A stretch of DNA of 64,000 bases, taken from positions 105,787 through 169,786 of the forward strand of contig JAUWSQ010000001.1 of assembly GCA_030609965.1 (NCBI GenBank), read 5' to 3'. Positions 8,475-16,600 of this stretch are shown here, one piece after another. The DNA is from Candidatus Fermentibacterota bacterium (GTDB taxonomy: Bacteria > Fermentibacterota > Fermentibacteria > Fermentibacterales > JCC-6). Within the stretch, counting starts at the first letter, position 1, and the number at the start of each line of letters is the position of its first letter. The notes beneath the pieces are model-generated. The model ran no database searches. It had not been told where the DNA came from and was given only the letters and a program-made list of their open reading frames with translations. A program made the position numbers and the translations under genes.

Positions 8475-8846
8475 ATGGCATCTGATAACGAACCGGACCA
8501 GGAATATTTCTATAATAATGCTGACCTGCTCAGAGCTATGGCTCACCCGGTAAGGCTTATGATTATGGACGAGCTGCTGCGGAATCCCAGATGTGTTAGT
8601 GCCATCCATGAGATACTCGATGTCCGGCAGCCCAACATATCCCAGCACCTTACAATTCTGAAGAATTCCGGAATAGTTGCCTCGGACCGGGACGGCTCCT
8701 ACAGATGCTACTACCTTCGAAGACCCGGTCTTGTCAAAGCTGTTCTGGAAACACTGAAGAAGGACTGGCCGGAAGCGCAAATAGAAAATGTCAGAGGTAA
8801 ATTCAAACGGGCGCTGAAAAAGCGCCTGGACAAACTGGGAAAATAA
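8475..8846 (+). CDS. ArsR/SmtB family transcriptional repressor
   Basis: AMAHPVRLMI...QPNISQHLTILKNSGIV HTH. Confidence 0.9.
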   Translation: MASDNEPDQEYFYNNADLLRAMAHPVRLMIMDELLRNPRCVSAIHEILDVRQPNISQHLTILKNSGIVASDRDGSYRCYYLRRPGLVKAVLETLKKDWPEAQIENVRGKFKRALKKRLDKLGK

Positions 8847-8866: not shown

Positions 8867-9220
8867 ATGGGTAAAGTAGCTTTAATCTGCAACGGTTCTG
8901 AAAAATCAAATATCTATCCTGCATTCGTTCTTGCTTCCTCGGCCGTTGCATCAGGTGACGATGTATTAATTTTCTTCACACCTGAAGCGGTTCCAGCCCT
9001 GAAACCAGGTATTCTGGAGGGCATGACAGGAAAAGGTATGCCTGATATGAAGGATCTTCTTGAGGGGTTTATGGCTCTCGGCGGACGCATGATGCTGTGC
9101 GAACTGGGGCTGGAAGCACATGATGTTACAGCTGAAGGCCTGAGGGACGATATCAATATAGGTGGAGCAACCACCTTCATGGCTGAAATTCAGGACGCGA
9201 AAACAACATTCTCATTCTAA
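8867..9220 (+). CDS. DsrE/DsrF-like sulfur carrier
   Basis: FVLASSAVASGDDVLIFFT...MMLCELGLE; DsrE fold with one Cys. Confidence 0.8.
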   Translation: MGKVALICNGSEKSNIYPAFVLASSAVASGDDVLIFFTPEAVPALKPGILEGMTGKGMPDMKDLLEGFMALGGRMMLCELGLEAHDVTAEGLRDDINIGGATTFMAEIQDAKTTFSF

Positions 9221-9238: not shown

Positions 9239-9463
9239 ATGGCTTCAATAGTACTCGACGCACTAGGAATGAAATGCCCCCAGCCGATACTGAAAATAGC
9301 TATAAAGGCCAAAGAACTGCAGCCTGGCGACATGCTGGAGGTTCTCGCGGACTGCCCCTCTTTCCCGGTTGACATAAAAGCCTGGTGCGAGCGAACAGGG
9401 AAGACCCTTCTGTTCTGCGCCACTGAAGGAGACGGCAAGCACAAAGCACAAGTTCAGTTCTAA
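9239..9463 (+). CDS. tusA: TusA/SirA family sulfurtransferase
   Basis: LDALGMKCPQP signature; 74 aa. Confidence 0.85.
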   Translation: MASIVLDALGMKCPQPILKIAIKAKELQPGDMLEVLADCPSFPVDIKAWCERTGKTLLFCATEGDGKHKAQVQF

Positions 9464-9473
9464 CAGCTGGTCA

Positions 9474-9905
9474 GTGGCGATAATGAAGGATTTCGAACCA
9501 CGTATCATAGGATTTCTCTGTAACTGGTGCTCCTATGCGGGGGCAGACCTTGCCGGTACAAGCAGGCTGAAAATGCCTCCGAACCTGGTTCCGATAAAGG
9601 TCATGTGTTCCAGCAGAGTTGACCCCGAAATGGTGACAGATGCCTTTCTCCGCGGTGCGGACGGTGTGCTTATAGCCGGGTGTCACCCGGGTGACTGCCA
9701 CTACGACAAGGGAAATTATTATGCAAGGCGAAGATTCGCGGTACTGAAGAAGGTAGTCGAAAGCCTGGGTCTTGAAGCGGAAAGGTTACGCCTCTCCTGG
9801 ATTTCCGCCTCTGAGGGAGCCCGGTTTCAGCAGGTCGTTGAGGAGTTCACCGAGAATATAAGGAAGATGGGCCCGAATCCTACCGGGAAGGAAACTCTTC
9901 TATAG
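9474..9905 (+). CDS. mvhD: MvhD/FlpD [2Fe-2S] subunit
   Basis: GFLCNWCSYAGADLAG, MCSSRVDP, GCHPGDCHY (Cys, not Sec). Confidence 0.92.
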   Translation: MAIMKDFEPRIIGFLCNWCSYAGADLAGTSRLKMPPNLVPIKVMCSSRVDPEMVTDAFLRGADGVLIAGCHPGDCHYDKGNYYARRRFAVLKKVVESLGLEAERLRLSWISASEGARFQQVVEEFTENIRKMGPNPTGKETLL

Positions 9906-11185
9906 TGGCTGCCGACGTTCTCGTTATAGGGGCCGGGGTTGCTGGAATGAAGGCTTCACTCCTTCTGGCCTCGTCCGGAAGGCGAGTTCATCTGATCGAG
10001 AACTCTTCCGTAATCGGCGGCAGGCTCATCCGCTGTGAGGATATATTCCCCGCGATGGAATGCGCTACCTGTATGGTCTCACCCATGCAGCAGGACGTTC
10101 TCCGGAACGATCTCATCAATGTAGTTACACTGGCGGATATACTCTCCATTGAAGGTTCAATCGGAGATTTCCGGGTAAGGATACGTAAGCAGGCATCATG
10201 CGTAGATCCCGTAGCATGCATCGGCTGTGCCGAATGCTGGAATGCCTGCCCGGTCGAGATCAACAATGAATTCGAAGAAAACCTGTCGAAAAGAAAGGCC
10301 ATCTCAGTTCCCTGCGCAGGAGCCCTGCCGAATGTCCCCTGGATTGACAGGGAACACTGCCTCAGATGGAACGGCGATGAAAACTGCAGCCTGTGCGCTG
10401 AAGCATGTGTTTTCGCTGCGGTAGATTATACTGAGGTAGATTCGGAGTTCGAGATAACCGTATCCGATATAATACTGTCGACAGGCTATCAGCCTTCTCC
10501 CGGAGATATGATTGACAAATTCCAGTGGGGAATCTGTACCGGTGTTTTCACCGCATCGGAGTTCGAGCGGTACTACTCCTCGAACGGACCCACATCCGGA
10601 GAACTGATAACAAAGGATGGGCGCAAACCCGAGTCAGCGGCGATAATAGTTCACGCATTCGGCACGGGCAGTCACTCAAGCATTAATACAATGTACTCTT
10701 TAAAATTCCTTCATTACCTGAATGAAAAACTCCCGGATATCAGGCCTATTGTATTTCTTGATGCGGAATATGAGCCGGTTGCCCTTGAGGACAGGAACCA
10801 CCAGAAATGGCTGGCTGCAGAAGCTGATGTTGTTCTTTGCACACAGATCCCTGAGGTTCATACGGTCGGTGACAGTAATAATCTGAGTATTACCTGCACC
10901 ACGGCTGAAGGCAGCTTTCAGGCGGAGGCTGACCTGCTTGTACTCGGTACATCGATGCAGCCTTCATCGGGAACTTCAAAATTCATCAAGCTGCTTGGCA
11001 TTGAGTGCAGTAATGATGGATTTGCCGCTAAACCTGAACCAGGGCTTTCATCGGTAATAACTTCTGTCCCGGGGATATATGCCGCGGGATGCAGCGGTGG
11101 TCCGCTTGACATAGCTTCTTCTGTCACAGAAGCCGCTGCCGCGGTCGGCAGGGTGCTGTCGGATACGAACAGAGGAGGTAACTAG
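9905..11185 (+). CDS. HdrA-like flavoprotein with inserted 2x[4Fe-4S] domain
   Basis: GAGVAG FAD motif, FPAMECATC, CIGCAECWNACP, CSLCAEAC, GIYAAG. Confidence 0.85.
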   Translation: MAADVLVIGAGVAGMKASLLLASSGRRVHLIENSSVIGGRLIRCEDIFPAMECATCMVSPMQQDVLRNDLINVVTLADILSIEGSIGDFRVRIRKQASCVDPVACIGCAECWNACPVEINNEFEENLSKRKAISVPCAGALPNVPWIDREHCLRWNGDENCSLCAEACVFAAVDYTEVDSEFEITVSDIILSTGYQPSPGDMIDKFQWGICTGVFTASEFERYYSSNGPTSGELITKDGRKPESAAIIVHAFGTGSHSSINTMYSLKFLHYLNEKLPDIRPIVFLDAEYEPVALEDRNHQKWLAAEADVVLCTQIPEVHTVGDSNNLSITCTTAEGSFQAEADLLVLGTSMQPSSGTSKFIKLLGIECSNDGFAAKPEPGLSSVITSVPGIYAAGCSGGPLDIASSVTEAAAAVGRVLSDTNRGGN

Positions 11186-12396
11186 TGCCTTCTACCAGAA
11201 CCGGTGTTTTCGTCTGCAGCTGCGGCCCTAATATCGGTGACAGGATCGATATCGAGAAAATAGCAGACGAAGTTTCCAGTATCGACGGTGTAGTGCTTGC
11301 GGAAACTCACGGTTTACTCTGCTCCCCCGACGGGAAGAAATACCTGGCGTCCAGAATAACCGAATACAAGCTCGAGAGAGTAGTCATTGCAGCCTGTTCT
11401 CCACGAGAGCACGAAATAACCTTCATGAAGGTCTGCGAAACGGCAGGACTCAACCCTTTCATGATGCAGATGGCGAACATTCGTGAGCAGGTGGCATGGG
11501 TTACACCAGACAGAAATTCCGCAACGGAAAAAGCTCTCAGACTTGTACGGGGTGCCATAAACAGGACCACCCGCCATAAACCCCTTATGAAGACAAGCAT
11601 CGTATGCAACCCCGAAGTAGCGGTAATAGGCGGTGGAATATCAGGTATGTCTGCTGCTATTGTTCTTGCGGATGCAAACAGAAAAATAACGATCATAGAG
11701 AGAAAATCTTCACTGGGCGGCTATCCGGAGAATGAAAAACTTGTAGAACACCTTAAGGATACCGTAACAGGACGTACAGAAATTACTGTTATAACCGATC
11801 GTGAACCTGAGGAAATTGTCGGTTTCTTCGGAAATTTCATTATTAACCTCGGTGAAGGCACCGATGAACTGCGGGCAGGATCAATAGTACTCGCTACCGG
11901 GTGCTCAGTTGAACAAAGCGGCAGAGCTGTCGCTTCCGAAGGCTTCAGAAGAATGACTGAAATGCTTAGAATCTCAACCGATGAGTATGGTTTCCCGAAC
12001 CGTGAGCATGATTCCCTCGCGCCGGTATCGACTCTGGTCGGCGGTGTATATGTCACCGGATGTGCTGGAGGGTTCTGCAGTCTGAGGGAGGCCGTATCAC
12101 AATCGGAAGCGGTGGCAGGTACAATCCTCTCCTCTCTGATCCCTGGCAGGGAAGTCGAAACCGAACCGAGAACATCTGTTATTTCAGAAACACTCTGCCG
12201 AGGATGTAAAACCTGTCTGGAAGTTTGCGGTTACGGAGCAATTTCCTTTGATGAGGAAAGGCTTGTCTGTTCAGTGAACAGTGTTCTGTGTAAAGGGTGC
12301 GGTAACTGCGCAGCAGCATGCCCCTCCGGGGCTATCAAAGCTCAGCATTTCACACCTGATCAGATCCGCTACCAGATGGCGGGGCTTCTGAGATGA
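11185..12396 (+). CDS. HdrA-like protein (N-terminal cluster domain, FAD motif, C-terminal ferredoxin), internally shortened
   Basis: VFVCSCG..LCS..AACSP..NIREQ; GGGISG; CRGCKTCLEVC and CKGCGNCAAACP. Confidence 0.85.
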   Translation: MPSTRTGVFVCSCGPNIGDRIDIEKIADEVSSIDGVVLAETHGLLCSPDGKKYLASRITEYKLERVVIAACSPREHEITFMKVCETAGLNPFMMQMANIREQVAWVTPDRNSATEKALRLVRGAINRTTRHKPLMKTSIVCNPEVAVIGGGISGMSAAIVLADANRKITIIERKSSLGGYPENEKLVEHLKDTVTGRTEITVITDREPEEIVGFFGNFIINLGEGTDELRAGSIVLATGCSVEQSGRAVASEGFRRMTEMLRISTDEYGFPNREHDSLAPVSTLVGGVYVTGCAGGFCSLREAVSQSEAVAGTILSSLIPGREVETEPRTSVISETLCRGCKTCLEVCGYGAISFDEERLVCSVNSVLCKGCGNCAAACPSGAIKAQHFTPDQIRYQMAGLLR

Positions 12397-13424
12397 ACTC
12401 CATACTGAAAGATTTACTGAGAAAAGCTCTGGACAACGGTATTGTCAGTTCAGTGATGGTTCCATCAAAGGGACCCGGGAATTCTTTCCCCTGGACTCTG
12501 GTAAGTGATGTTTCCGCACTGCAGCGGGCTGAACCTGTTCCTCCTGTCATGTCCGTTCAGGGAGCAAAAGCACTGGCCTCCTTCACTCAATCTATGCCGG
12601 AGGGGAAGCTCCTGGCTGTTATGCGTCCATGTGAAGCCAGAGCTGCAGTAGAGCTTTCAAAACTTGAACAGATCGATCTCGACAACATCATCCTTCTCAC
12701 CATGGACTGCCCGGGTGCAGTCCCCCTTGGGGAGTATGGCGAGGATGGAATAACGGAACCTGACATCAATGATCCTGCAACCCTTCGTCCCCTCTGCAGG
12801 CAGTGTACTGGTTTCACCTCAGCGGGTGATCTGTGCCTTGCCATGCACGGAGGTCTAAATGCGGTGCTTCCCCTGACCGCCAGTGGACAGGAACTCCTCG
12901 ATTCTCTTGGATTTAAGGCGGAAGCGGACATATCAGGATGGGAAGAATGGGCGAACGCCCAAAGGGGGGAGCGTCAAGTAACCAGGGTCGAGAATATGGA
13001 GAATTTGAAGGAAGCATACAGCGGCCTGCAGGGCCTGATCGAAGTTTTCAGTGGATGCATCTCCTGCCGCAGCTGCAGAACGGTATGCCCGATCTGTTAC
13101 TGCAGACTCTGTTTCATCGACATGAAAGACAGACGATCTCCAGCTTCTGAACATCTTGAACGGTCCCGTAACGGTGGTGCGGCAAGGCTTATGTCGAATA
13201 CACTTCTTTTCCATATCGGCAGGATGGCACACATGAGCCTTTCATGTGTATCGTGCGGAATGTGCGAGGATGCCTGTCCTTCGGATATCCCGATCGGCAG
13301 GCTCATAAGCATGGTTTCTGCTGATACTACGGCTGTTTTTAATTACAGCGCCGGGAGTAACCCTGAAGATCCACTGCCCCTGAATACTTTTCTCCCGGAA
13401 GAACTACATGAATACGAAGACTGA
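12393..13424 (+). CDS. FdhB/FlxB-like (FrhB-family) 4Fe-4S protein
   Basis: AVMRPCEARA; CISCRSCRTVCPICYC; GRMAHMSLSCVSCGMCEDACP. Confidence 0.85.
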   Translation: MNSILKDLLRKALDNGIVSSVMVPSKGPGNSFPWTLVSDVSALQRAEPVPPVMSVQGAKALASFTQSMPEGKLLAVMRPCEARAAVELSKLEQIDLDNIILLTMDCPGAVPLGEYGEDGITEPDINDPATLRPLCRQCTGFTSAGDLCLAMHGGLNAVLPLTASGQELLDSLGFKAEADISGWEEWANAQRGERQVTRVENMENLKEAYSGLQGLIEVFSGCISCRSCRTVCPICYCRLCFIDMKDRRSPASEHLERSRNGGAARLMSNTLLFHIGRMAHMSLSCVSCGMCEDACPSDIPIGRLISMVSADTTAVFNYSAGSNPEDPLPLNTFLPEELHEYED

Positions 13425-13457
13425 TAACCTGCATCTGATCCCGGGAGGTGGTTTTTG

Positions 13458-14546
13458 TTGCAGAACAGTATACTGATATCCAAATAAGAAACCCGGGATA
13501 CTCTGAGACATTTACTGTGTGAACTTCTTGAGAACGGTGAGGTTGATTCAGTTTTTGCTCTCCGGGAAACCAGACAGAAGGGTAGATACTGCTATTCTCT
13601 CATATCCGATCCTTCTCTGATCGGCGAAGTGCTGCCTTTCCATCCTGTTATGCCTGTGCAGGGAGCCCGTGCCCTTTCGGACCTGACCATTACTGAACCT
13701 CTCAACCGCCCTGTTGCCGCGCTTCTGAGACCCTGCGAGATCCGGGCTTTTGTAGAGAATGTGAAGCAGACACAGGGAAACCTGGAGAATATTTTCATTA
13801 TCAGCTGCACATGCCCGGGTGTGATACCGGCATCAAAATTGCTCAGGGAAGACCGTGAAGAAATTCTAAAGAATCATTCTGAAAATATCAGAAACTCATG
13901 CGGGGCATGTCTCGAATTCGTTCCCGGGCAGCAGGCGGATATGACTGTTCTTGTTGCTTCGGATGAACCGCACAAGGGCACTGTCATTTATCTGCATACG
14001 GAAAAGGCTGTCGAAATTGCGGAAAAACTCGATTCCTGCACCCTGGAAACAGGTAAGCCTCCTGCTGAACTCACATCTGGAATCCTTGAAGCTAGAAAAA
14101 AAGCTCTGAAGGATCTGATGAGGGATATTCCAGCACCGGGGGATGGCCTGCAATCACTTGTATCGCTTTTCTCAGCATGCATAGGATGCCGCGGATGCAG
14201 AGAAGCGTGCCCATTATGCAGCTGCATTCTCTGTGATTATGAAACTGCCCGTACCCTGCATTCCCCTGAACTGGTCCGGACTGAGGCGAAACGGAAAGGA
14301 TCAATAAGGGTACCGGCGGGAACCCTCCAGTTCCAGCTCGGCAGGCTTATGCATATTTCACCCATATGCACATCATGCGGTCAGTGTAGTGATGTATGCC
14401 CAGTGGATATTCCTGTAGCTGACATATTTATCAGGGCGGCAAATCTGGTCCAGGAATCACTTGACTACGCCCCCGGCAGAGACACAGATGATACCCCCCC
14501 CATGGCAACTTATGTAGAGAAGGAGCTGCCTTCCATAACCGACTGA
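13458..14546 (+). pseudogene. Second FdhB/FlxB-like paralog, interrupted by in-frame TAA at 13485-87 (or a shorter CDS from GTG 13629)
   Basis: RBS GGAGGTG, then TTG 13458 LQNSILISK*ETRDTLRHLLCELLENGEV, aligning with the N-terminus of the upstream paralog; LLRPCEIRA; CIGCRGCREACP; CTSCGQCSDVCP. Confidence 0.6.
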
Positions 14547-14985: not shown

Positions 14986-15232
14986 ATTTAACCTCCCCCC
15001 TGTTTGTGAGACTATCTGATACTATACAAACTTAATATTACTTCAGAATAGAGTCTTCGCAATGGGCTCAAGCATTACATTTTGGAAGATTGAGGATATC
15101 CCTGTCTTCCAGATCAATCTTATGACTTGTTCAAAAACATCTATCTGCGTATTATTTGTTCCTGATTATTCTCTATATTTTGTTCAATATCAGTATTAAA
15201 TCTTGAATATTAACTGTTGGAATGGGGATATA

Positions 15233-16600
15233 ATGAAATCATACGATGTTATTATCATTGGAGCCGGTCCCTCAGGAATTGTTGCGGGTATTACATCCAG
15301 AAAGCGAAATCCTGACAAGTCGTTTCTAATGATAATGGAAGAAGAAAAAGGACTTGTTCCATGCGGGATTCCTTACATCTTCCATGATCTTGAAGATATA
15401 TCACAGAACAGCATGGGACCTGCGCCATTTGTAAACGCGGGTGGCGAGGTCCTGATTGATACGGTAACCAATATCGATATCGGGAGTAAAGTTCTTCAGA
15501 CCGAGTCTGGAAAAAGTATTTCTTACGGCAAACTTGTCTTTGCGACGGGTTCAACTCCAATTATTCCGATTTTTATCAAGGGTTACGATCTGGAGAATGT
15601 TGAATACATCGCAAAGAGCTACAAATACATCAATGGGCTTATGGATCGGATAAGATCAGCGGTGAATATTGTTGTTATAGGAGGAGGGTTCATAGGTGCC
15701 GAAGTAGCTGAACAGCTTGCGAAGCACAGAGACAAGAATGTAACGCTGATCGAAAAGGAAAATCACTGTCTGTACCGTGCTTTCTCAGCTGATTTCGCAA
15801 CCCTTGCTGACAAGCATCTCAGGAATGCCGGAGTCAATGTATTGACAGGCTGTACTGTTAAGGAACTGGAAGGGAGCAGCGGGAAAATTGAGTCCGTGCT
15901 ACTGGTAGATGGAAGATCAATCAAGGCTGACCTTGTCATCTCCGCAATTGGATACAAACCATGTACTGAGCTTGCAGCCAGGGCGGGTCTTCATCTAACA
16001 AGTAACGGTACCATCAGAGTTGACAAGTATATGAGAACTGAAGAGCAGGACGTATACGCGATTGGTGATTGTTCCCAGACTTCCGGTTTTATTACAGGCA
16101 GAACGGACAATATTATGCTGGCCTCAACGGCTACGGCGGAAGCCAGAATTCTTGGTAACAATCTCTTCAGTATTAGTCTGCTTCGAACTTTTTCAGGCAC
16201 TCTATCAGTGTTTTCCACAGAACTCGATGGTTATGTATTCGCTTCTGCAGGAGCAATTGAACAATCAGCCCTTGAAGCGAACGTGGATTACGTGGTGGGA
16301 AGATTCGAAGATGTTGACCGTCATCCCGGTTCACTGCCTGGTGCGAAGAAGATAATAATCAAAATAATCGTCTCCCCTGAAAACGGTGAGATAATCGGAG
16401 GGGAGATCTACGGCGGTAAATCCGTGGGAGAGATGATAAATATCATCGGTCTCGCAATTCAGAAATACGTTACAATCTACGAGATGATATCTTTTCAGAC
16501 CGGAACGCATCCCCTGCTAACCACTGCACCCACAAAGTATGCACTGGTCAAGGCTTGCGAAAATGCCATTTCAAATATCGAAAAGCAGGCTGGAAAATAG
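15233..16600 (+). CDS. FAD-dependent pyridine nucleotide-disulfide oxidoreductase (NADH oxidase/CoA-disulfide reductase family)
   Basis: GAGPSG; single redox Cys in VPCGIPY; GGGFIG; YAIGDC; C-terminal GTHP. Confidence 0.88.
   Translation: MKSYDVIIIGAGPSGIVAGITSRKRNPDKSFLMIMEEEKGLVPCGIPYIFHDLEDISQNSMGPAPFVNAGGEVLIDTVTNIDIGSKVLQTESGKSISYGKLVFATGSTPIIPIFIKGYDLENVEYIAKSYKYINGLMDRIRSAVNIVVIGGGFIGAEVAEQLAKHRDKNVTLIEKENHCLYRAFSADFATLADKHLRNAGVNVLTGCTVKELEGSSGKIESVLLVDGRSIKADLVISAIGYKPCTELAARAGLHLTSNGTIRVDKYMRTEEQDVYAIGDCSQTSGFITGRTDNIMLASTATAEARILGNNLFSISLLRTFSGTLSVFSTELDGYVFASAGAIEQSALEANVDYVVGRFEDVDRHPGSLPGAKKIIIKIIVSPENGEIIGGEIYGGKSVGEMINIIGLAIQKYVTIYEMISFQTGTHPLLTTAPTKYALVKACENAISNIEKQAGK

Follow-up and report, generated by a model that had tools for sequence, protein, structure and literature searches.

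HdrA, the A subunit of heterodisulfide reductase, is the model flavin-based electron-bifurcating flavoprotein, and the cluster termed HA4 is the only one close to its flavin. Here we describe two adjacent hdrA genes, paralog 1 and paralog 2, in a 64,000-nucleotide stretch of the Candidatus Fermentibacterota assembly GCA_030609965.1 (contig JAUWSQ010000001.1, positions 105,787 to 169,786 of the forward strand; hereafter the window, within which our coordinates are counted), and we report that HA4 is absent from both encoded proteins. In the canonical scheme the high-potential electron moves from the flavin adenine dinucleotide (FAD) to HA4, HdrC and then HdrB, and the low-potential electron travels via HA3, the shuttle cluster of the C-terminal domain, to HA5/HA6 in the inserted ferredoxin domain (PMC12350162; PMC6019823; PMC9012536). 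The placement of HA4 on the branch to HdrC, from which an initial annotation of the window had started, is confirmed by the literature (PMC12350162, PMC9012536).

The crystal structure shows the N-terminal cluster of one HdrA being completed by Cys197 of the other (PMC9012536), and in Elp-Hdr and Fdh-Hdr the arm of one HdrA, made up of its N- and C-terminal domains and MvhD, serves the flavin and inserted ferredoxin domain of its partner (PMC12350162). [quoted passage not shown] It differs from canonical HdrA in that these parts are divided between two proteins, HA4 is missing, and no HdrBC is encoded at the locus.

Tandem HdrA proteins are known from anaerobic methanotrophic (ANME) archaea, in which HdrA5/6, HdrA12/13 and a fused HdrA3/4 have been proposed to act as heterodimers (Chadwick et al. 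2022, PMC9012536). These pairs are likewise complementary, one partner having Cys197 but no N-terminal domain, and they too are accompanied by MvhD and FdhB/FrhB-like genes. In the HdrA classification of 2025 (PMC12054007), our paralogs 1 and 2 correspond to classes A6 and A12; we refer to them below as the core and the shell, respectively. Gain and loss of Fe-S domains is common in HdrA (PMC12054007), and what sets the ANME and A6/A12 classes apart is that whole domains were gained or lost, whereas here HA4 is gone from both partners and the flavin-binding part of the A12-type protein is a bare FAD-binding domain. The class named "A9-TRX-C" in the same paper (PMC12054007), a name that its text does not explain, may denote a related loss in ANME-1. 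The setting also differs from that of the ANME pairs: the window host is an uncultured, fermenting bacterium without methane metabolism, and its operon starts, behind a regulatory gene, with dsrE and tusA.

Two other HdrA systems share features with the window. The sHdrA of sulfur oxidisers (6TJR) is also an HdrA-family flavoprotein linked to DsrE and TusA carriers; it has been described as an Fe/S flavoprotein (PMC11094781), represents the minimal form of the family, class A0 (PMC12054007), and works with HdrB and HdrC homologues. The window operon shows the reverse: its proteins retain the peripheral clusters but have lost the one beside the flavin, and it encodes neither HdrB nor HdrC. QmoA/QmoB likewise combine two HdrA paralogs per complex with an MvhD-type module, without HdrB, in sulfur metabolism (PMC3333476). 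In Qmo, however, an MvhD domain is fused to QmoB and the membrane subunit QmoC carries haem b and Fe-S clusters. The window operon has neither feature: its MvhD is encoded by a separate gene, genes resembling QmoC or HdrE are missing from it, and QmoC's place is taken by FdhB-like proteins. Our literature search found no description of a dsrE-tusA-mvhD-hdrA-hdrA operon or of an HdrA pair lacking HA4. The heterodimer principle and the domain classes are already published (PMC9012536, PMC12054007); what appears to be new is a lineage with no flavin-side cluster in either partner and a shell pared down to a bare FAD-binding domain.

Paralog 1 (9905..11185, + strand; 426 aa) matches the NCBIfam HdrA2 model over positions 140-557 (E=8.5e-87). 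We used phmmer to align it to the solved HdrA chains 5odc_A, 8rvu_a and 8rvv_A, all of which matched with E of about 1e-62; the match to 5odc_A (E=3e-62) covers chain residues 146-562. In this alignment the stretch AAIIVHAFGTGSHSSINTMYSLK, residues 245-267 of paralog 1 (10637..10705, + strand), faces the CVGSRD...YCSxxCCMYxxK segment of solved HdrA, and none of the four HA4 ligands of 5odc_A (C386, C399, C403 and C404, as counted off the printed alignment) is a cysteine in paralog 1. The initial annotation had noted, from the letters alone, that paralog 1 lacks cysteine at this site, and comparison with structurally characterised HdrA bears it out, the HA4 motif being missing from both paralogs. 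What remains of paralog 1 is an FAD domain, Cys53/Cys56, an inserted 2x[4Fe-4S] ferredoxin domain and an NAD-like subdomain without HA4. E221, R222 and K267 are invariant; E221 and K267 are the equivalents of E356 and K409, which are said to tune the environment of flavin N5 (PMC12054007). An AlphaFold2 (AF2) model of paralog 1 has a mean predicted local distance difference test score (pLDDT) of 76, low at the cofactor-free cysteine loops, and still shows, where HA4 used to be, a strand (245-248), a loop, a helix (259-275) and a second strand (282-286).

In paralog 2 (11185..12396, + strand; 403 aa) the loss takes a different form. The protein matches the HdrA2 model in two stretches (E=1.9e-88), and in our search against solved HdrA chains its match to 8rvu_a (E=2e-72) runs from query residues 3-221 (chain 11-241) directly to query residues 249-400 (chain 503-651). 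Because the match jumps from chain residue 241 to 503, the inserted ferredoxin domain and the HA4-bearing NAD-like subdomain are absent from paralog 2, and the E356/K409 equivalents left with the latter. Alignment with 560-aa orthologues and canonical HdrA places the junction at 11884..11994 (+ strand), where about 165 residues of NAD-like subdomain are missing. As the initial annotation had observed, IVLATG (residues 234-239) is followed almost at once by LRISTDEYGF (261-270), with only 21 residues between them. The protein thus consists of an N-terminal cluster domain, a bare FAD-binding domain and a C-terminal 2x[4Fe-4S] ferredoxin domain; the FAD-binding Rossmann motif (GxGxxG ... E ... 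GG) and the HdrA fold are present in both paralogs. The AF2 model of paralog 2 (pLDDT 85.8; predicted TM-score 0.73) has 8rvy_A as its best Foldseek structural match (TM-score 0.80), and residues 137-320 are confidently predicted as an FAD-binding domain without the NAD-like subdomain. As modelled, the loss in paralog 2 is a clean domain excision, and the shell is predicted still to fold.

The initial annotation had treated the two genes as parallel paralogs, a view that their domain content does not support. Paralog 1 carries the ECATC motif (C53/C56, the equivalents of C194/C197) and has neither the N-terminal cluster domain nor the C-terminal ferredoxin domain; paralog 2 carries both of these, with CxCG, CS and AACSP motifs in the N-terminal one, and has neither Cys197 nor the inserted ferredoxin domain. 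A6-type and A12-type genes strictly co-occur in 61 loci. We predict that the paralogs are complementary halves of one asymmetric HdrA heterodimer. The domain content is best explained if paralog 1 is the core, contributing the sole complete flavin site, the cysteine that would complete the partner's N-terminal cluster, and the HA5/HA6 domain; by analogy with the Elp-Hdr and Fdh-Hdr arms, the arm would serve the flavin of paralog 1 only, and the flavin site of paralog 2 would never be arm-served. Because the paralogs are complementary halves and not parallel copies, the two HA4 losses differ in meaning: paralog 2 gave up a flavin site that no electron arm served, and paralog 1 lost the only nearby exit from the sole complete flavin site.

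We asked how consistently HA4 is missing by comparing 120 clusters of short (about 425 aa) HdrA proteins, of which the 47 most similar to the query share 47-93% identity with it. All four HA4 cysteines are missing in every one of these 47 clusters, and all are kept in each of the 64 more distant clusters. The position of C386 is His throughout the clade (47/47), that of C399 is H, Y or F, that of C403 is N or S, and that of C404 is T or S. Every other cluster ligand, namely Cys53/56 and the cysteines of the inserted ferredoxin domain, is 100% conserved in both the HA4-less and the HA4-positive groups, as are two more cysteines, C137 and C152. The NAD-like subdomain is the least conserved region of the reduced clade, with a ratio of its identity to that of the whole protein of 0.75, versus 0.92 in HA4-positive relatives; the FAD-N region (1.24) and the inserted ferredoxin domain (1.28) are the best conserved.

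Within the 47-cluster clade we found no replacement cysteine conserved at or near the HA4 site, nor any that is specific to the HA4-less state. Cys44 was rejected as a substitute ligand: it is present in 94% of the clade, but it already occurs in sister sequences that retain four or three HA4 cysteines, and it is absent from a second, independent lineage that lost HA4. The invariant His at the C386 position was also rejected, since it cannot alone hold a cubane. In its sequences, then, the clade shows no substitute ligands at this site, the finding that the initial annotation had named as contrary to its reading.

The loss extends through the host's relatives. The nearest homologues come from metagenome-assembled genomes (MAGs) of Candidatus Aegiribacteria and Fermentibacteria, and a contiguous A12 of 400 aa is present in about 20 of the 25 other species genomes of the genus at 60-86% identity. 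In about 20 species all core genes are intact (54-87% identity) and synteny is kept. The loss of HA4 is not a matter of chance: all 47 clusters and about 20 of 25 species of one Candidatus Aegiribacteria-type genus have it as a fixed trait.

We next placed the operon among its relatives, drawing on 80 loci from a scan of species-representative genomes and 21 more from a metagenome scan. The order (arsR)-dsrE-mvhD-A6-A12-X1-X2-mvhD, in which X1 and X2 are FdhB-like genes, recurs across more than ten phyla; the full order was found in Thermoplasmatota, Cloacimonadota, Chloroflexota (Dehalococcoidia), Aminicenantes, WOR-3, Krumholzibacteriota, KSB1, Latescibacterota, Spirochaetota, Bacillota and Fermentibacterota. 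This parent operon, dsrE-(tusA)-mvhD-A6-A12-2x fdhB-like-mvhD, has the same gene order and families as the window operon, and the core proteins are 38-46% identical. Unlike the window it has HA4 in both halves, a 560-aa shell, two mvhD genes and often a neighbouring gene for a protein of 800-1100 aa. At these full-version loci A12 is about 560 aa long, and both A6 and A12 have all four HA4 cysteines together with the E/K pair; in total, 54 related operons keep all four HA4 cysteines in both halves. Among the scanned loci the reduced state is confined to the window and loci L003-L009 (locus, genome and sequence handles are ours), all of them from Aegiribacteria/Fermentibacteria MAGs.

In a maximum-likelihood tree the HA4-less sequences form a single long-stemmed clade (100% support) inside HA4-positive relatives. 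Its neighbours are a four-cysteine group (P0046, from the full-version locus L087) and a three-cysteine group (P0047, P0050, P0052); the metagenome scan, with its 21 loci, recovered none for the three-cysteine sequences P0047, P0050-52 and P0060. In a sister genus of the same family, P0121 (L108:2714-4408, - strand) is a 564-aa A12 that shares 54-58% identity with paralog 2 and keeps the four HA4 cysteines but not the K409-type lysine (CCDATLN); its A6 partner is cut by the contig end. P0121 may represent an intermediate state. Because the sister-genus A12 keeps the four cysteines and the clade is nested in HA4-positive relatives, the loss was secondary and probably stepwise. A recent duplication of the full version within Fermentibacterota was ruled out as the source, as the full-version copies of this phylum branch in a distant part of the tree. 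The tree and gene orders are best explained if the window operon is a genus-level reduced offshoot of a widespread operon of anaerobes.

HA4 has also been lost, separately, in a Spirochaetales MAG (L017) and in P0057, P0063, P0065 and P0073, in these cases from A6 only. In the L017 lineage A12 keeps HA4, and the locus has two mvhD genes.

The remaining genes of the window operon all lie on the + strand. The first encodes an ArsR-family regulator (8475..8846; Pfam HTH_5 E=1.3e-13), and an ArsR-family gene stands upstream of the cluster in many related loci. It is followed by genes for a DsrE-like sulfur-carrier protein of 117 aa (8867..9220; Pfam DrsE_2 E=4.7e-12, DsrE E=6e-07) and a TusA sulfur carrier of 74 aa with a CPxP motif (9239..9463; Pfam TusA E=3.9e-18). 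Because this tusA open reading frame (ORF) fills an apparent gap between dsrE and mvhD, the operon has both sulfur carriers. Cys78 of DsrE is invariant in 41/41 orthologues, and the single conserved Cys of the DsrE family is the sulfur-binding residue (PMC11094781). The operon's only mvhD (9474..9905; Pfam FlpD E=4.1e-55) encodes an MvhD/FlpD-type [2Fe-2S] electron-transfer protein, the five cysteines of which are conserved in 107 homologues; it is the most conserved protein of the operon, with 88-98% identity across L003-L009 compared with 54-87% for the HdrA halves. The final base of mvhD is the first base of paralog 1, start and stop codons overlap across mvhD, paralog 1, paralog 2 and X1, and the genes are tightly packed on one strand. 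The best explanation of this layout is that the paralog genes are co-transcribed and translationally coupled with those for ArsR, DsrE, TusA, MvhD and two FdhB-like proteins.

X1 (12393..13424; 343 aa) was identified by its FdhB profile match as an FdhB-like flavo-iron-sulfur protein. A profile built from 19 X1 orthologues matches FdhB chains over their full length (9t1s_M, E=1.2e-46; also 8rvu_E and 7bkb_E), PF04432 is found in 13 of the 19, and the ESM Atlas gives the same family. X1 and X2 are FdhB homologues; both carry an HdrC-type Fer4_8 dicluster domain, and their cysteine patterns do not vary in either the reduced or the full clades. An FdhB-type flavo-Fe-S subunit and an MvhD-type [2Fe-2S] subunit thus adjoin hdrA, as in the donor modules of Fdh-Hdr and Elp-Hdr. 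Unlike canonical Hdr complexes, the window operon has no FdhA or hydrogenase, and we found no F420 biosynthesis genes: neither CofE nor CofH was present above the cut-off in this 2.6 Mb assembly, a MAG that is 81% complete, so that their absence is not proof. On the lack of CofE and CofH, we consider coenzyme F420 an unlikely substrate and set aside an F420-dependent module.

In this MAG the X2 gene is disrupted at its 5' end. Its present ORF (13629..14546) encodes 305 aa, compared with about 365 aa in orthologues. A native TTG start behind GGAGG is followed by nine codons and then by TAA at about 13490, where L003 and L004 read TCA TCA and the window reads TAA GAA; the homologous frame runs on at about 80% protein identity to the first usable start, GTG at 13629, a start that would drop some 60 N-terminal residues (the region concerned is about 13440-13630, + strand). 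A recent nonsense mutation, a variant within the population or an error in the consensus could each account for this. Selenocysteine insertion or other recoding was rejected, since the stop is TAA, arising by substitution (TCA TCA to TAA GAA), and not TGA.

The ligands of the low-potential route are all present at this locus, whereas the high-potential route is absent, with no HA4 and no HdrB/HdrC in the operon. Canonical bifurcation (from FAD through HA4 and HdrC to HdrB) would be impossible for a flavin without a cluster on its high-potential side, and we infer from the sequences that it is excluded. To this extent the proposal of the initial annotation that this is not a standard bifurcating HdrA holds. 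The joint best explanation of the locus, which we judge evenly balanced between right and wrong, would be an asymmetric HdrA heterodimer that is a reduced offshoot of the parent operon and acts as a non-bifurcating, single-path relay. The core flavin would exchange electrons only with the swinging arm, that is, the [2Fe-2S] of MvhD and HA2/HA3 of paralog 2, and the sole way out from it would be HA5/HA6. Electrons would then follow a single path from the FdhB-like module(s) to MvhD, the arm clusters of the shell, the core FAD with HA5/HA6, and ferredoxin, with the chemistry being done at the FdhB-like subunits and tied to TusA- and DsrE-bound sulfur. The sulfur carriers and the ArsR regulator suggest that this chemistry concerns carrier-bound sulfane sulfur, and a non-bifurcating, ferredoxin-linked electron relay seems the most likely function of the complex.

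Three points weigh against this model. The retained E356/K409-type residues, which are taken as marks of a bifurcating flavin, sit oddly with a plain relay. The nonsense codon near the start of X2 may mean that the module is impaired in this MAG. Lastly, the number of mvhD genes, which speaks for the model in being at least two in 39/42 full loci and exactly one in 6/6 reduced loci and in the window, reflects a single evolutionary event, so that the co-loss of the second mvhD and HA4 is a lead and not a statistical association.

Of the alternatives, we first consider that the complex still bifurcates: a two-electron acceptor, either TusA/DsrE persulfide or NAD(P)+, would sit in the vacated, Rossmann-like HA4 pocket and react with the core FAD, and the low-potential electron would travel by the arm to HA5/HA6 and ferredoxin. 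The invariance of E221 and K267 speaks for this, as do the sulfur carriers encoded in the operon, the kept strand-loop-helix-strand at 245-286, whose glycine-rich loop (GTGS in the window) corresponds to the NADPH-binding place of the TrxR family, and a gene resembling CoA-disulfide reductase downstream in the window and in L005. The Gly-rich loop, however, is variable in the clade (GSDS, GTDN, NRGN and others) and its spacing is unlike the canonical GxGxxG; the low conservation of the subdomain points to relaxation over a new binding site; and Cys44, the only new cysteine typical of the clade, is older than the loss. We consider continued bifurcation of this kind unlikely. For the same reasons of loop and subdomain, a regained NAD(P)H site was rejected as a finding and is kept only as part of this low-probability alternative. 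The more specific proposal, that a flavin without a high-potential Fe-S exit reacts directly with persulfide or NAD(P)+ in the HA4 pocket while the arm takes the low-potential electron, is somewhat less likely still. If true, such a direct reaction of flavin and acceptor would mean that flavin-based bifurcation can be wired in a new way, and would hint at what the entire family of sulfur-carrier-linked HdrA operons acts on.

It is also conceivable, if improbable, that HA4 is dispensable here as a cluster is supplied in trans, for example by the HdrC-like dicluster domain of an FdhB-like subunit docked at the HdrC position near the flavin. X1 and X2 do have the Fer4_8 domain with all of their cysteines invariant, and the second lineage (L017, P0057, P0063, P0065 and P0073) lost the core HA4 and kept the rest. 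Yet comparison of the reduced and full clades revealed no compensating change in either X1 or X2, and the clusters of HdrC in solved Hdr complexes are located farther out than HA4 and not next to the FAD.

Alternatively, the operon could be a decaying duplicate that drifts toward loss as the full version in the same genomes does the work. A full-version A12 is indeed present in at least 14 of the genus genomes with a reduced A12, and the two versions are also paired as L004 with L045 and L007 with L049; in the window's own assembly only the reduced pair and one canonical HdrA were seen. The relaxed NAD-like subdomain and the nonsense codon in X2 would also fit decay. On the other hand, the core ORFs are intact and syntenic in about 20 species, the remaining cluster ligands are 100% conserved across the 47 clusters, MvhD is 88-98% identical, and the excision in paralog 2 is clean and its model confident. 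We regard decay as distinctly improbable.

The initial annotation had suggested that the loss of HA4 fits the absence of HdrBC, and a family scan of the locus did show that neither the operon nor its immediate flanks contain a gene for HdrB or HdrC; but we consider it most implausible that HA4 was lost simply for want of HdrBC to feed, given that 54 operons keep HA4 in both halves, that HdrB is adjacent in only 4/42 full-version loci with adequate flanks (loci that all keep HA4), and that the genome carries hdrCBA on contig 12. Because both halves keep HA4 while HdrB adjoins so few of these loci, HA4 must have a role without adjacent HdrBC. The genes on contig 12 (G000; L001, L084) are a canonical hdrC-hdrB-hdrA set directly downstream of a hydrogenase maturation protease gene, and the HdrA is 651 aa long with an intact CAGSRD...YCSKICC motif. 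By its gene content, the organism therefore appears also to have a standard Hdr.

Having removed HA4 from both partners, this lineage is a natural knock-out of the high-potential branch in which every other cofactor site and the flavin-tuning residues are still under selection. The occurrence of both complexes in one organism (at least 14 genomes) offers a comparison that could show the role of HA4 and of the second MvhD. The sulfur-carrier-linked operon family to which they belong occurs in anaerobes of sediments and digesters from more than ten phyla. We note as a caution for annotation that, for these genes, the label "heterodisulfide reductase subunit A" implies neither bifurcation nor heterodisulfide reduction.

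Several further observations concern the surroundings of these operons and other members of the HdrA family. Full-version operons are often flanked by mvhD and a gene for a protein of 800-1100 aa (L091:2010-5276, L087:5396-8449, L042:12774-15284 and others). In L091, the one scanned, this protein has a NuoG/HoxU-like [2Fe-2S]/[4Fe-4S] N-terminus fused to two HdrA-like halves; the NuoG-like/tandem-HdrA neighbour is absent from the reduced operons. Downstream of the window operon, at 15203-16600 (+ strand), lies a gene for a flavoprotein of the CoA-disulfide-reductase/NADH-oxidase family with a VPCGIPY active-site motif. It is syntenic in L005, where it is 88% identical, and a homologue lies upstream of dsrE in the Thermoplasmatales full-version locus L011. 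Finally, some canonical-size or long HdrA homologues of this phylum contain one in-frame TGA each (G029:C274, G038:C4:63977-64669 and G069:C21:4022-4714), which would fit selenocysteine-containing HdrA.

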